Shown: piece by piece, positions 26,378-51,893 of the stretch | Numbering within the stretch: the first letter of the stretch is position 1 | Layout: each line of letters begins with the position of its first letter | Position numbers and translations under genes: made by a program | NCBI GenBank assembly: GCA_965205505.1 | Contig: CBDBHB010000008.1 | Coordinates: forward strand, 864,001 to 928,000 | Source of the DNA: Acidobacteriota bacterium | Lineage (GTDB): Bacteria > Acidobacteriota > UBA890 > WLXD01 | DNA: 64,000 bases | Direction: 5' to 3' | The notes under the pieces: model-generated | What the model saw: the letters and a program-made list of their open reading frames with translations, nothing else | What the model was told of the DNA's origin: nothing | Databases searched by the model: none

Positions 26378-27217
26378 ATGTCACAGATCCTCCGAATCGG
26401 GCAAAGCGCCGACCCCGACGACGCGTTCATGGCATGGGGGCTGCGCGCCGAGTTGGAGCGACGCGGTCTCGACGCCGAGTTGGAGTTCGCCGACATCGAG
26501 TCGCTGAATCGAGCTACCGAGGATGGTCGCCTCGATCTCAGCGCGATTTCTGTGGGCGCCTACCCGACGTTCGCCGACCGCTATCGGATGTTGCGCTGCG
26601 GGGCCAGCTTCGGCGACGCGTACGGACCACTCGTGGTCGGTACCCGACCTCCGAGCGCGGGCACCGACACACCACTTTCAGGACTCACGGTGGCCATCCC
26701 CGGAGCCTTGACAACCGCCCGGATGCTTCTGCGCAACTACGCCGGCACGACCTATCAGGAGGTCGAGATGCGATTCGACGCCATCCTCGACGCGGTCGTC
26801 GCCGGTGAGGTGGACGCCGGACTGATCATTCACGAAGGGCAGTTGCTGTACGAGCGTATGGGGTTACACGCGCTCTTCGAACCGGCGATGGAGTGGGCCG
26901 AGCGCGAGCAGCTACCGCTACCGCTCGGAGTGGTAGCTATGCGCCGCGATCTTGCCGCACCGGTTCAGGAGGCGGTCGCCGACGCGTTTGCTCATAGCGT
27001 GCACGCCGCATTCCAGCATCCGGAGGCAGCCCTCGACTTCGCCGCAAGCTACGCGCGCGGTCTGGCCCGCGATGACCTCGAGGAGTATGTCTACCGATAC
27101 GTCAATGCGGCAACCCTCGACATGGGTGTAGCCGGGCAACGGGCCATCGAGCGTCTGTTCGAACACGCTCGAGCTGCCGGGCTTCTGGCCACGGTACCGG
27201 CGGTCGACCTCTACTAG
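26378..27217 (+). CDS. mqnD: 1,4-dihydroxy-6-naphthoate synthase
   Basis: SADPDDAFM, DIESLN, YGPLVV, AIPG.LTTA, IIHEGQL, PLPLG, YVN. Confidence 0.88.
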   Translation: MSQILRIGQSADPDDAFMAWGLRAELERRGLDAELEFADIESLNRATEDGRLDLSAISVGAYPTFADRYRMLRCGASFGDAYGPLVVGTRPPSAGTDTPLSGLTVAIPGALTTARMLLRNYAGTTYQEVEMRFDAILDAVVAGEVDAGLIIHEGQLLYERMGLHALFEPAMEWAEREQLPLPLGVVAMRRDLAAPVQEAVADAFAHSVHAAFQHPEAALDFAASYARGLARDDLEEYVYRYVNAATLDMGVAGQRAIERLFEHARAAGLLATVPAVDLY

Positions 27218-27319
27218 ATGAGATGAGAAGGCCAACCTCCTGAACGCAGTAGCCTGACGGCTCTGCAAACGTTTCTTCAAACGTAACGGGCTCGAAGCCC
27301 AAGGAGGTTGGCCGAGCAA

Positions 27320-28111
27320 GTGTAACGATTGGACTGGACGTAAGCGACCGGTACAGCCGTATGTGCGTGCTCGACAGTAAGGGCAGGGTGATGGAGGAAG
27401 GGCGGGTGAGGACGAGCCCGGAGGGGCTGGCGAGGCGGTTCGGGTGCGAGGAGCCCGCTCGAGTAGTGCTGGAGGTTGGAACGCGCTCGCCGTGGATGAG
27501 TGAGCAGTTGAAGCAACTGGGTCATGAGGTGCTGGTGGCTAACCCGAGGCGGCTGAAGCTGATCTATGGCGAGCACGACAAGACCGACCGGTTGGATGCC
27601 GAGCACCTGGCACGAGTGGGCAGAATGGACCCAAAGCTGCTTAAGACGGTGCAGCATCGAGGCAGACAAGCGCGAGCGGATCTAGCCGTGATTCGGAGCC
27701 GAGATGCTCTGGTAAAGAGGCACGCAGTTGGTGAGCCATGTGCGTGGTGCGGTCAAGTCGGCCGGTTGTCGTATTCCCAGGTGCTCGACGCCGGCGTTCG
27801 CGCGCACCGCGCCAGAGCACATACCGGAGCGGCTCAAGGGAGCGCTCGAGCCGGTGCTTGAAACGATCGCCATGCTGACGGGCAACATCCAGCAATACGA
27901 GCGTCAGATCGCAACGCCGAGATTGCCCCTATGGCGTATGTCGACGCTCCCAGCCTTCCGGGTGACGGCGGGACCGGCCGCCTCCGGCGTCGCGGCGCCT
28001 CGACGATACACCCAGCATCGCCCTCGTCTCGCCGTTGTGCTGCACCGACTGTGGCTGAGTGGAGACGAGTACGAACCGTTGCGCGCACCTGTAGAGGTTT
28101 CAGCAGCATGA
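27320..28111 (+). pseudogene. IS110 transposase, disrupted
   Basis: GLDVSD, LEVG, KTDRLDA (DEDD RuvC-like) present; start codon lost, frameshift near 27718, Tnp domain missing. Confidence 0.85.
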
Positions 28112-28357
28112 ACTAACCCGCAACCAGGAGGTCGGTAGGGCGACGCGACCCAACGGTTATCGATCTGACCGCCCGGTCCGGGCGACTGCGAAGGTCACTA
28201 CGAGCTTCGAGCTCGGCAGCTAGATTGCAGCGCCTCGAATCGGGACGGACCCCAGAATGCACCGGACGACCTGAATCCTCGTCCACCAGAGTGCGAATAG
28301 GAGCATGGCGTGCAGATCGATTCTTCGCTGGGCACCACATTGCCCTTGACCGAACTA
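28112..28357 (+). ncRNA. Candidate bridge/seek RNA region (right non-coding end of IS copy 1)
   Basis: Same sequence as 51167-51412 (apart from a 1-nt indel), including the target-matching segments. Confidence 0.65.
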
Positions 28358-28371
28358 GGCCTTCTCTTAGA

Positions 28372-28646
28372 AGTGGCCTGAGTCAGAGGTTCGTTGCATA
28401 TTGCTGGGCCGAGATAGGGGCAAGCTCAAGGCGCGATGAGAATGGCGATCCTCTCCGATCGTCGACGAATCGCAACGCCGAGATTGCCCCTATATCGTCC
28501 CAGCCTTCCGGGTGACGGCGGGACCGGCCGCCTCCGGCGTCGCGGCGCCTCGACGATACACCCAGCATCGCCCTCGTCGCCGCTCCTACAATTCGCCCCG
28601 GTCGCGCGCGCCACAAACGTCACCGTACTTATGATCAGGAGCACTA
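28372..28646. mobile_element. TA-flanked palindromic element with hybrid ends (C-like left, A right); left TA at 27215-27216 separated by the IS
   Basis: Left agtggcctgagtcagaggttcgttgcatat resembles the type C end; right ~130 nt nearly identical to 9978-10105. Confidence 0.88.
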
Positions 28647-35237: not shown

Positions 35238-35343
35238 GGGCCTGACTCTCCGCCGTTTGGAAGGTGCCGTATCAAGCGTTTGACGTCCTGTCCAACAAGT
35301 GACGGCGGCCGCTGTAACCAGATCCGCCAGAGTTCTTCAGCAC

Positions 35344-35893
35344 TAGTGGCCTGTAACAGATGATCGTTGCATATCGTGGTGGCGAAATGGGCTCGGATGC
35401 CAGGCGCAACGACGAGACGATGTTGGCCCATCTTGGAGGAGAAGCAACGCCGCAGACGGGCCCATTTCGCCGCCATCCTGCGGACAGATGGGCAGTTGTG
35501 GGCGATATCGGCGTTGCGCCTCGTCAACGATGCCCCAGCAGGTCGTGATGGAAGTGTGATGGGTCTGGTTACGCCACCAAGGGCGCGGATCCAAGGCGCC
35601 GCGTCGCAGGCGATGCCCGTGCGCATCGTCTAGGAGCGGCAACGCCGGAGACGCGCCCTTGGCGGCGTAACCTGTAGGGCAAGTGGGAGTCACGGGCGAT
35701 GGCGGCGTCTCTCCTCCTCGACGATGGCTCCAGCATCGCCTCATCGTCGATCCTTGTCCTAGCCCGTGAGTCCCATTTGCCAGACCCACCACACTTCCAT
35801 CACGGCCTGCTAGCATCGCCCTCCTCCCCGCGCCTTGATCTCACCCGCAAATCCCATCTGCGATATGCAACGATCATCTGTTACAGGCCACTA
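35344..35893. mobile_element. TA-flanked palindromic element, type C/C ends, carrying a nested type D element
   Basis: Perfect 33-nt TIRs tagtggcctgtaacagatgatcgttgcatatcg / cgatatgcaacgatcatctgttacaggccacta. Confidence 0.92.
35536..35812. mobile_element. Nested palindromic element, type D/D ends, two arms
   Basis: cagcaggtcgtgatggaagtgtg ... cacacttccatcacggcctgcta; ends match those of 17891-18074. Confidence 0.85.
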
Positions 35894-35899
35894 GATCCC

Positions 35900-49176: not shown

Positions 49177-49271
49177 CTTTGGGCCTCCGAAGCCCGCCCG
49201 ATGACGGGAACCGCGCCCTTGTCGACACCTCATGCGACGCGAGGAGGCTTATTCTGGCACGCTCTCTAATC

Positions 49272-50024
49272 GTGGGCAAAGAACTCGATCGTGACAGCCT
49301 CGCTCCCGACCGCGTCGAGGCTGCCGGCGGATCGTTTACCAACGCCGTGCAGCGGATGTTCGATGGCCTCGCGCCGCGCTACGACACGTTCAACCGCTGG
49401 GCCAGCCTCGGACTGGACACCGCGTGGCGGCGCGCTGCGATCCGCCAACTCGGGGTGCCGGCCGGCGGTTCTGTGCTCGACATCGCCACCGGAACCGGCG
49501 ACCTTGCACTCGCCTCGGCCATCGCCGGCCATCGCGCGGTGGGCGTCGACTTCGCCCGCGAGATGATCAACGCCGCCCGCGCCAAGCGATCGCGAGCCGA
49601 CCTCCCGGTGCCGTTCCACGTCGCCAGTGCCGAAGCCCTTCCCTACGATGAAGCCAGTTTCGACGGAGCCCTTTCCGGTTTCGCGATGCGCAACGTCCGC
49701 CCCATCCTGTATTCCGTGCTCGCCGAGGCACACCGTGTGCTCAAACCCGGCGGGCGCTTCGTGATCCTCGAGTTTTGCGACCCTCCATTTGCTCATGTCC
49801 GCTGGGGGCACCGCCTCTACACGCGAGCCGTCGTCCCCAACATCGGTCGCTGGCTAACTGGCACCTCCGTCCCGTTCGACTACCTCAACCGCAGCATCGA
49901 TGCCTGGGAGAGCCCGGAGTCATTCGCCGCTATCCTCACCCGCGCCGGCTTCATCGAGGTCGCGTATCGCCGCCTCACCCTGGGTACGGTCGCCCTCCAC
50001 TGGGGCGCCAAGCCACGCAGTTAG
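49272..50024 (+). CDS. ubiE: UbiE/MenG demethylmenaquinone methyltransferase
   Basis: MFD.LAPRYD..N, LDIATGTGDL, F.MRNV, RVLKPGGR..ILEF, YL..SI. Confidence 0.9.
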   Translation: MGKELDRDSLAPDRVEAAGGSFTNAVQRMFDGLAPRYDTFNRWASLGLDTAWRRAAIRQLGVPAGGSVLDIATGTGDLALASAIAGHRAVGVDFAREMINAARAKRSRADLPVPFHVASAEALPYDEASFDGALSGFAMRNVRPILYSVLAEAHRVLKPGGRFVILEFCDPPFAHVRWGHRLYTRAVVPNIGRWLTGTSVPFDYLNRSIDAWESPESFAAILTRAGFIEVAYRRLTLGTVALHWGAKPRS

Positions 50025-50121
50025 ATGAGATGAGAAGGCCAACCTCCTGAACGCAGTAGCCTGACGGCTCTGCAAACGTTTCTTCAAACGTAACGGGCTC
50101 GAAGCCCAAGGAGGTTGGCCG

Positions 50122-51166
50122 ATGATAAGTGTAACGATTGGACTGGACGTAAGCGACCGGTACAGCCGTATGTGCGTGCTCGACAGTAAGGGCAGGGTGA
50201 TGGAGGAAGGGCGGGTGAGGACGAGCCCGGAGGGGCTGGCGAGGCGGTTCGGGTGCGAGGAGCCCGCTCGAGTTAGTGCTGGAGGTTGGAACGCACTCGC
50301 CGTGGATGAGTGAGCAGTTGAAGCAACTGGGTCATGAGGTGCTGGTGGCTAACCCGAGGCGGCTGAAGCTGATCTATGGCGAGCACGGACCGACCGGTTG
50401 GATGCCGAGCACCTGGCACGAGTGGGCAGAATGGACCCAAAGCTGCTTAAGACGGTGCAGCATCGAGGCAGACAAGCGCGAGCGGATCTAGCCGTGATTC
50501 GGAGCCGAGATGCTCTGGTAAAGAGCCGCACGCAGTTGGTGAGCCATGTGCGTGGTGCGGTCAAGTCGGCCGGTTGTCGTATTCCCAGGTGCTCGACGCC
50601 GGCGTTCGCGCGCACCGCGCCAGAGCACATACCGGAGCGGCTCAAGGGAGCGCTCGAGCCGGTGCTTGAAACGATCGCCATGCTGACGGGCAACATCCAG
50701 CAATACGAGCGTCAGATCGTGCAGCTGTGCCAGGGGCGATACCCGGAGACACAGCAGCTCCAGCAAGTGGCCGGGGTCGGAGCTCTGACCGCACTGGCGT
50801 ATGTGCTGACGCTCGAGGAGCCGGAACGGTTCAATACCTCCAGAGCCGTGGGCCCGTACCTGGGACTGAGACCGAAGAAACGGCAGTCGGGGGACAAGGA
50901 CCCTGCGCTACGAATAACCAAGGCGGGCGACAAAATGCTCCGACGCCTGTTGGTGGGGCTCGGCGCATTACATCCTGGGCCCCTTCGGGCCCAATACTGA
51001 GCTCAGACGCTGGGGGCTCAAGCTGGCCGGACGCGGTGGTCCTCATGGCAACAAAAAGGCAGCAGTTGCTGTCGCCCGTAAGCTCGCCGTTGTGCTGCAC
51101 CGACTGTGGCTGAGTGGAGACGAGTACGAACCGTTGCGCGCACCTGTAGAGGTTTCAGCAGCATGA
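50122..51166 (+). pseudogene. IS110 transposase/recombinase with three apparent frameshifts (~50273, ~50387, ~50956)
   Basis: GGAGG RBS; GLDVSD, LEVG, D..DA; GVG, YLGL.P...QSG, ITKAG; frameshifts may be sequencing errors. Confidence 0.85.
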
Positions 51167-51412
51167 ACTAACCCGCAACCAGGAGGTCGGTAGGGCGACG
51201 CGACCCAACGGTTATCGATCTGACCGCCCGGTCCGGGCGACTGCGAAGGTCACTACGAGCTTCGAGCTCGGCAGCTAGATTGCAGCGCCTCGAATCGGGA
51301 CGGACCCCAGAATGCACCGGACGACCTGAATCCTCGTCCACCAGAGTGCGAATAGGAGCATGGCGTGCAGATCGATTCTTCGCTGGGCACCACATTGCCC
51401 TTGACCGAACTA
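51167..51412 (+). ncRNA. Candidate bridge/seek RNA region of IS copy 2
   Basis: Target-matching segments 51247-51255 and 51271-51278 flank the hairpin cgagct-tcg-agctcg; donor-like segments 51333-51338 and 51352-51358. Confidence 0.7.
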
Positions 51413-51426
51413 GGCCTTCTCATAGA

Positions 51427-51512
51427 AGTGGCCTGAGTCAGGACACCTGGCGGAGCGGTGAGACAGCCGGTTTCCGTAGCCGGACCCACCAGAGTTCTTC
51501 AGCATCCTGCTA
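51427..51512. repeat. Short TA-flanked element with hybrid ends (C-like left, type E right)
   Basis: agtggcctgagtcag ... gacccaccagagttcttcagcatcctgcta; type E end also at 35320-35342 and inverted at 52063-52094. Confidence 0.75.
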
Positions 51513-51893
51513 CGCTGAGAACGAATGCCCGCAGCCACACGTCCCGGTGGCGTTCGGGTTCTTCACCGAGAACCCGCTGCCCATCAGAGACTCGGTGTGA
51601 TCGACGTGACACCCCTCCAGGTAAGGAAGACTGAAGGAGTCGAGAAGCACCTCGATGTCGCCCTGCGGGATCACCAGATCGCCTTCCTTGTGCTCGTCGA
51701 ATGAGAACCCGTACTCGAAGCCTGAACAGCCGCCTCCTTGAACGAAGATGCGCAGCATCTTGCCTTGGGCGTCCGGCTTGGTGTCCAGGAACTCGCGTAC
51801 CTTGGCGATGGCGGCCTCGGTGAACACGAGCGGTGCTTTCGAGGTCGGCGGCGAGGCCGGGCTTTCGGGCTGCTCGCTAGCTGTGGCTTCCAT
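51510..51893 (-). CDS. erpA: A-type Fe-S carrier protein (HesB/IscA/ErpA family)
   Basis: GGGCSGFEY, NPNATGTCGCGHSF. Confidence 0.93.
   Translation of the reverse strand: MEATASEQPESPASPPTSKAPLVFTEAAIAKVREFLDTKPDAQGKMLRIFVQGGGCSGFEYGFSFDEHKEGDLVIPQGDIEVLLDSFSLPYLEGCHVDHTESLMGSGFSVKNPNATGTCGCGHSFSA

Follow-up and report, generated by a model that had tools for sequence, protein, structure and literature searches.

Here, we show that segments in the non-coding right end of an insertion sequence (IS) from an Acidobacteriota bacterium are complementary to the target and the ends of this element, that these complementarities change in step with flanks and ends among related elements, and that the surrounding stems covary. 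The IS is located in the window, by which we mean the whole stretch of 64,000 nucleotides of DNA that was analyzed. Judged by comparative sequence analysis, its right end very probably encodes an IS1111-type seekRNA or bridge RNA that has two target guides and whose three-way junction would read the donor, and we put the probability of this reading at roughly 0.8.

According to this model, the 260-nt non-coding right end would give rise to a + strand seekRNA or bridge RNA of ~140 nt (roughly 51225-51365), folding into a three-way junction whose arm 1 (P0/P1) contains an internal loop in which two guides flank hairpin P2. These guides, designated T and B, would direct insertion to the position following ...CTAG, within the terminal inverted repeat of a MITE-like repeat, and two single strands of the junction would read the circular donor. 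From the published mechanism of the family, we infer that an RNA is produced from this end, that the DEDD recombinase binds it, and that it directs strand exchange at AG. Since the recombinase gene of the window copy is broken, this copy would depend on intact ones.

An IS1111-type element with a broken recombinase gene

Window positions 50025-51426 represent one IS copy, and all features described here are given for the + strand. The dinucleotide AG, which is found in empty sites and represents the putative crossover core, is common to the left (50023-50024) and right (51427-51428) junctions. As delimited by sequence and junctions, the element begins with the head ATGAG (50025-50029), located beyond the left subterminal inverted repeat ATGAGAAGGCC (50030-50040), which is the reverse complement of the right subterminal inverted repeat GGCCTTCTCAT (51413-51423), and ends with the tail AGA (51424-51426). 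The inverted repeats comprise 11 bp, with 5 nt outside on the left and 3 nt outside on the right. Non-coding DNA amounts to 97 nt upstream of the recombinase gene (50025-50121) compared to 260 nt downstream of it (51167-51426).

The DEDD recombinase gene of the window copy (50122-51166), recognized by its open reading frames, Pfam matches, and comparison with the majority form, is in pieces and frameshifted; relative to this majority form, it has single extra bases at 50273 and 50955 and lacks four bases after 50387. BLAST of the element against its own genome returned 33 matches, 28 of them near full length and 98-100% identical. A preliminary description of this DNA, made from its letters, had considered the element a candidate programmable recombinase once the ORF is repaired; such a repair is unnecessary, because 10 of the 28 near-full-length copies have an intact 348-aa recombinase gene. 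The intact protein matches PF01548 (E 1.4e-17) and PF02371 (E 5.4e-17), and the gene fragments of the window copy give weaker matches to the same domains. According to Siddiquee et al. (2024, PMC11187229), recombinases of the IS1111 group are characterized by a length of 330-350 aa and the motif GL-P----S(T)G, which is present in the 348-aa protein as GLRPKKRQSG. By its domains, this motif, the 11-bp subterminal repeats, and the longer downstream non-coding DNA, the element is assigned to the IS1111 group of the IS110 family, the defining features of this group being taken as given in PMC11187229 (Siddiquee et al.) and PMC11208160 (Durrant et al.). Insertion occurs into one specific sequence, with a dinucleotide shared with the element and no other duplication.

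A partial second copy, most of whose middle is missing, is present in the window at 27215-27911 and 28028-28386. Its pieces correspond to query positions 23-720 and 1084-1442, and its left flank ends with ...ctctac-TAG. Two polymorphisms were observed among the 28 copies: G/C (18:10) at 51386-51387 in the distal non-coding end, and A/T (22:6, CTCAT vs CTCTT) at 51421-51422 inside the right inverted repeat. This suggests the existence of two IS sublineages.

Insertion into the terminal repeat of a MITE-like element

All near-full-length copies share the left junction ...C-T-AG/ATGAG and the right junction ...CATAGA-AG/TGGCCT (a slash marks the border), and these sequences identify AG (CT on the bottom strand) as the shared dinucleotide. 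About 75 unoccupied sites listed in the same genome have the form (C)TA/GTGGCCTG and can be read as (C)TAG-TGGCCTGTAACAG..., and together with the junctions they show that the empty target TAGTGGCCT and the AG/CT core had been deduced correctly in the preliminary description. Free TAGTGGCCT sites number 135 (109 with C before them), compared to ~42 expected from base composition, and the same genome count gave 31 occupied right junctions. TGGCCT at 51429-51434 is the right half of the target, as indicated by junctions, empty sites, and site count. The left flanks of the full and the partial copy in the window are gcagttag and ctactag, respectively, just as quoted before. Over 28 distinct left flanks, conservation is confined to C-TAG, with the C present in 26.

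The element inserts into the terminal inverted repeat of a MITE-like repeat that is modular and abundant. The window contains one copy of this repeat at 35343-35894, ~550 bp in length and with inverted CTAGTGGCCTGTAACAG termini, and a short form at ~2041. The modules of which the repeat is built are found dozens of times across the genome, the IS target corresponds to its terminus, and minimal palindromic forms, terminus against terminus, exist as well. The stop codon TAG of an upstream ORF (49179-50024) is part of the insertion site of the window copy, and thus the IS sits directly on the stop codon of this gene. The left flank of this copy was found in four of four same-genus genomes; a search of these four genomes for an orthologous empty site yielded no clean one, and the intergenic DNA past the gene differs.

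Two predicted target guides around a hairpin

In a fold of 51215-51345, AGGUCACUA and GCAGCUAG lie on opposite sides of one internal loop, which is bounded by stem P1 (51236-51246/51280-51289) and hairpin P2 (51256-51270). The T guide AGGUCACUA (51247-51255), delineated by match test and flank covariation, is complementary to the top strand over T, AG, and TGGCCT. It is separated by P2 (CGAGCT-TCG-AGCTCG), which folds and whose pairs covary, from the B guide GCAGCUAG (51271-51278), delineated by flanks and covariation. The B guide reads like the left flank followed by AG, so that it pairs with the bottom strand, and the two guides overlap on TAG. A target loop of this guide-hairpin-guide type, with an AG/CT core and situated in the right end of an IS1111-type element, had been proposed in the preliminary description, and both the fold, in which the target guides are in the internal loop and outside stems, and the covariation described below agree with it. 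The strings named there, AGGTCACTA (51247-51255), CGAGCT-TCG-AGCTCG (51256-51270), GCAGCTAG (51271-51278), CTCGTC (51333-51338), and ATAGGAG (51352-51358), are all found at these positions.

The T guide matches the empty site over 9 nt with one G:U pair. When the non-coding end was shuffled by mononucleotides, 59 of 1000 shuffles reached 9 nt with at most one wobble on either strand of the 17-nt target. A 9-nt T match within a single sequence is weak evidence and not striking; the case rests on the position of the guides and on covariation in relatives. None of the 28 copies differs in the guide-loop region. One of them is inserted at TGACCT, the perfect complement of the T guide, which implies that the remaining sites are read through a wobble. 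The B-guide match in the window's genome is short, covering only C-TAG of the variable left flanks.

A further complementarity, with one wobble, connects GAAGGUCA (51245-51252), composed of the end of P1 and the start of the T guide, with the element's own inverted repeat (GGCCTTC), which the target TGGCCT happens to resemble. It is probably a coincidence, considering that relatives with other targets lack it.

Guides change together with flanks in relatives

Relatives with an alignable non-coding end were obtained from G011, a genome of the same order (62-68% protein identity), from six metagenome loci (50-60% protein identity), and from 19 additional genomes belonging to the phylum (46-57% identity); at E <=1e-70, matches were obtained in 20 of 401 genomes, the window's own included. 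All of them keep the same frame, consisting of GACUGCG, guide, hairpin, guide ending in the core, A, and U-N-GCAGC, and within this frame the guides vary between relatives in step with the flanks. In G011, CGGACUCUA stands opposite T-AG-AGTCCG and GAGUAG opposite the left flank GAGTAG, and in L069 the guide match is perfect over 10 nt. The core varies in step as well: in three elements whose junctions both carry AA, the T guide contains UU and the B guide ends in AA.

For 22 distinct elements, the mean longest Watson-Crick run between T guide and right flank was 6.8 nt with the own flank compared to 3.4 nt with others, and runs of at least 7 nt were found in 13 of 22 own pairs but in only 6 of 462 cross pairs. 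For the B guide and 21 left flanks, the mean run was 5.8 nt with the own and 3.7 nt with other flanks, runs of at least 6 nt occurring in 14 of 21 own and 21 of 420 cross pairs. Both guides therefore follow their own flanks, the behavior by which the preliminary description had suggested to check them; in each case none of 10,000 permutations reached the own sum, a count that overstates significance because the relatives are kin and not independent.

No poorly scoring row was removed from the flank tests. L072 and L082, in which the right end was wrongly detected, and L083 and L086, in which matches were partial or displaced, were counted as misses. L085 was excluded, since part of its non-coding end recurs in its right flank, and L070, L077, and L078 were without a right end in the sequence covered. 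L072 (G166) contributes one of the 25 rows of the alignment used below and one of the 22 rows of the T test, and no claim depends on it. Left ends were wrongly detected in L080 and L082, and the head of L082 was entered by hand for the left-end guide test.

The 5' guide of L086 finds its best complement 9 nt past the called junction, and in L083 the junction match is only partial, raising the possibility that true ends or target structure may differ in these elements. The DNA just past the right end of L085 (G268:C38), which repeats part of its own non-coding end, may reflect a tandem or nested insertion. The recombinase gene of the closest relative, the G011 element (L033/L041, G011:C1, ~3908161-3911885), is split by an insert of ~2.7 kb at residues ~150/146, and despite the split gene its ends and guide RNA region are intact. 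A distant locus, L031 (43% identical), came from a single-protein scan of genome contigs and lies outside the analysis set, as does L039 (G047).

Structure and strand of the predicted RNA

RNAalifold applied to an alignment of 25 non-coding ends (A1) recovered P1, the base of P2, and P3. In a manual five-helix model comprising P5, P0, P1, the base of P2, and P3, 88% of cells are paired, compared to at most 44% with slid partners; 11 pairs are changed on both sides, and the covariation score is 0.204 vs 0.106 (reached by 0 of 500 shuffles). P1 (51236-51246 with 51280-51289), supported by both alignment fold and helix model, closes the target loop, has 98% of cells paired with GC/AU and CG/UA covariation, and by hand count does so in 23 of the 25 lowest-energy folds of single sequences. 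The junction helices show 72-78% of A1 cells paired. P5 is formed by CGCC (51225-51228) and GGCG (51362-51365), with 77.8% of cells paired and two pairs changed on both sides, and P0 by GUCCG (51231-51235) and CGGAC (51301-51305), with all five pairs changed on both sides. In P3, formed by UGCAC (51313-51317) and GUGCG (51346-51350), four of five pairs are invariant and a U-G pair is present in 20 of 25 sequences. P4 (51319-51339), identified by fold and relatives, is a structural hairpin, GGACGA/UCGUCC, which contains CTCGTC. The U-G pair of P3 and the G:U and G:T wobbles of the guides would be A-C mismatches on the other strand, and this assigns the RNA to the + strand.

Outside P5, AUCGAUCUG (51214-51222) and CAGAUCGAU (51368-51376) show a perfect long-range complementarity of 9 bp, which could extend the closing helix; at this place, G011 has another complementary pair. 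An Rfam search of 49800-51700 at E <=10 returned only two hits, both at chance level (E 4.2 and 6.6) and both to models of unrelated eukaryotic lncRNAs.

Proposed reading of the donor ends

The putative right-end donor guide AUAGGAG (51352-51358), identified with the help of the relatives' ends, has the sense of ATAGA plus AG at the right terminus, and its single difference in the window element (G for A) is a G:T wobble. Across relatives, the segment after P3 reads AU(A/G)GAA(G/A), equal to the right terminus AT(A/G)GA plus the core. The A or G in the RNA agrees with that in the right end in 19 of 19 elements placed on the recombinase tree, and, by eye, in G011 as a 20th. This label changes ~4 times on the tree, and the well-supported sister pair L064/L065 differs in it. 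The core base of the segment agrees in the three AA elements, with L064 and L065 being exceptions at the core.

A candidate left-end donor guide, CCCA (51306-51309), starts directly after P0 and was likewise identified by comparison with the relatives' ends. It faces the 4 nt that precede the left inverted repeat, three of four positions pairing in the window element. The segment varies with the bases that it faces (CUCA/TGAG, CCUUA/TAAGG, UCCA/TGGA, and ACCA/TGGT), pairs with the own left end at 71 of 80 positions (0 of 10,000 permutations), and has all four positions paired in 12 of 20 elements. In L064, L075, L069, L086, and L082 it shifts along with the left-end head. In the three-way junction of P5, P0, and P3, the two donor segments connect the helices, and Durrant et al. 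(2024) describe donor-binding nucleotides in multi-loops of IS1111 RNAs.

As an alternative, the seekRNA might serve the target only: the T and B guides would choose the target, the recombinase would read the donor ends via the subterminal inverted repeats, and CCCA and AUAGGAG would be scaffold or protein-binding motifs. According to Siddiquee et al. (PMC11187229), an 82-nt short seekRNA with both target matches suffices to move a mini-IS, and arm 1 (~51231-51305) is of comparable size. Moreover, the left-end guide has just 4 nt and is mismatched in the window element, and the identity of AU(A/G)GAAG with the right terminus, being a motif of the same sense in RNA gene and terminus, could also be read as a repeated protein-binding site. 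However, this explanation does not account for the full concordance at the A/G position despite ~4 switches on the tree, the agreement of the core base in the three AA elements, a difference in the window element that is wobble-compatible for precisely a + strand RNA, or the tracking of the head by the left-end segment in five elements, and it is at odds with the multi-loop donor nucleotides reported by Durrant et al. We therefore regard it as unlikely.

A role of CTCGTC (51333-51338) as left-end guide, combined with ATAGGAG for the right end, is what the preliminary description had proposed. The latter assignment was retained on account of the 19 concordant elements; the former was not. CUCGUC is complementary to the left end GATGAG with one wobble, and the closest relative G011 has CUCGUCU with a 7-nt match, but the segment belongs to the 3' strand of P4. 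Hairpins with four or more pairs, unrelated in stem sequence, occupy this position in 24 of 25 relatives, L071 lacking one, and the complementarity of the 3' strand to the left end is no greater for own (3.39 nt) than for cross pairs (3.36 nt; 4737 of 10,000 permutations). CCCA thus appears to be the likelier left-end guide, and we consider donor reading by CTCGTC highly improbable. Least probable of all is a chance resemblance, in which ordinary conserved IS-end DNA would match the target by accident, as the shuffle frequency and the missing Rfam match might suggest, given that in ~20 related elements the guides at homologous loop positions change with the flanks (for neither guide did any of 10,000 permutations reach the own sum) and the stems covary.

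For the preferred reading, in which strands of the three-way junction contact the donor, it is tempting to speculate that the donor of this clade is read asymmetrically, by a 7-nt right-end guide that includes the core and a mismatch-tolerant left-end guide of 4-5 nt off the core; we offer this only tentatively. If true, the left-end guide would share recognition of this end with contacts that the protein makes to the long inverted repeat, and the 20-odd natural guide/flank pairs with three cores (AG, AA, and TG) would amount to a natural map of specificity in a bridge-recombinase branch that has yet to be characterised.

Relation to known systems

Guide RNAs of the IS1111 type were described in 2024 (Siddiquee et al., Durrant et al.). 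The seekRNA-encoding elements ISEc11, ISPa11, ISKpn4, and ISPst6 (PMC11187229) share with the window element a DEDD recombinase of 330-350 aa with GL-P----SG, subterminal repeats, and longer downstream non-coding DNA. In these seekRNAs, the top-strand match is located 5' of the bottom-strand match and both overlap in the target (PMC11187229); the predicted window RNA has the same order and overlap, with both matches covarying with the target. Their short (82-96 nt) and long (~150-170 nt) forms fit arm 1 and the whole junction, respectively (PMC11187229). Protein identity to members of a plasmid collection is at most 37%, and in contrast to the characterized elements, the window element has the terminal repeat of a MITE-like element as its target.

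ISAzs32, which Durrant et al. (2024) illustrate with a predicted bridge RNA along with five other elements (Extended Data Fig. 10c), was found at L095 (Azospirillum plasmid NC_013856.1) with 33% protein identity. By eye and in one copy, its layout is alike, with a P1 containing a bulged A, guides flanking a hairpin, CGGACCCCAU facing the left-end head ATGGGG, and AGAGAAG equal to the right terminus plus AG, whereas its target and inverted repeats are different.

Similarly to the predicted window RNA, the IS621 bridge RNA (IS110 group) has guide-hairpin-guide loops reading both strands of target and donor, with the core included in each pairing and CT on one strand. IS621 has short inverted repeats, and its protein match is limited to the C-terminal domain (E ~1e-8); a PDB sequence search returned weak matches to IS621 (8wt6) and ISCro4 (9t56) only. 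As described by Durrant et al. (2024), IS621-type elements encode the RNA in the left end, the 5' side of the loops pairs with the bottom strand, and the donor loop is a simple internal loop. We rejected membership in this type, since the window RNA is located in the right end, its 5' guide pairs with the top strand, and its donor segments are in a three-way junction. The window system would work like IS621 but is placed outside the IS621 subgroup.

The element appears to provide a well-documented natural case of RNA-guided recombination from a branch remote from those elements that have been studied, with no plasmid-borne relative exceeding 37% protein identity. Its genome provides 10 intact recombinase genes, 31 occupied and 135 free sites, and more than 20 relatives have guides changed alongside their targets. 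This natural retargeting may serve as a proxy for guide reprogramming. The finding leaves the known mechanism unchanged, and could help to choose new bridge-recombinase orthologues and to test how IS1111 elements recognize their own ends. Insertion into terminal inverted repeats of another transposon is reportedly also a property of the IS1111 members IS4321 and IS5075, attributed to work of Partridge and Hall in 2003, whose targets are said to be Tn21-family transposons in enterobacterial plasmids. The target of the window element differs in being a small non-autonomous repeat.

Transcription and promoter signals

Metatranscriptome contigs of X16 and X17, which belong to one study, cover 50205-51435, most of the element including the non-coding end, with the reservation that such libraries may contain DNA; X20 covers 50933-51089 only. 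No joint corresponding to a circle junction was seen in the RNA-library contigs. A scan for sigma-70 promoters and terminators detected no promoter and one unrelated terminator-like site. By eye, TTGACC at 51401-51406, missed by the consensus scan, is a candidate -35 element of an outward or junction promoter. TTGAC was also found, again by eye, ~16 nt before the terminus in most relatives, a position that fits the idea of a junction promoter mentioned in PMC11187229.
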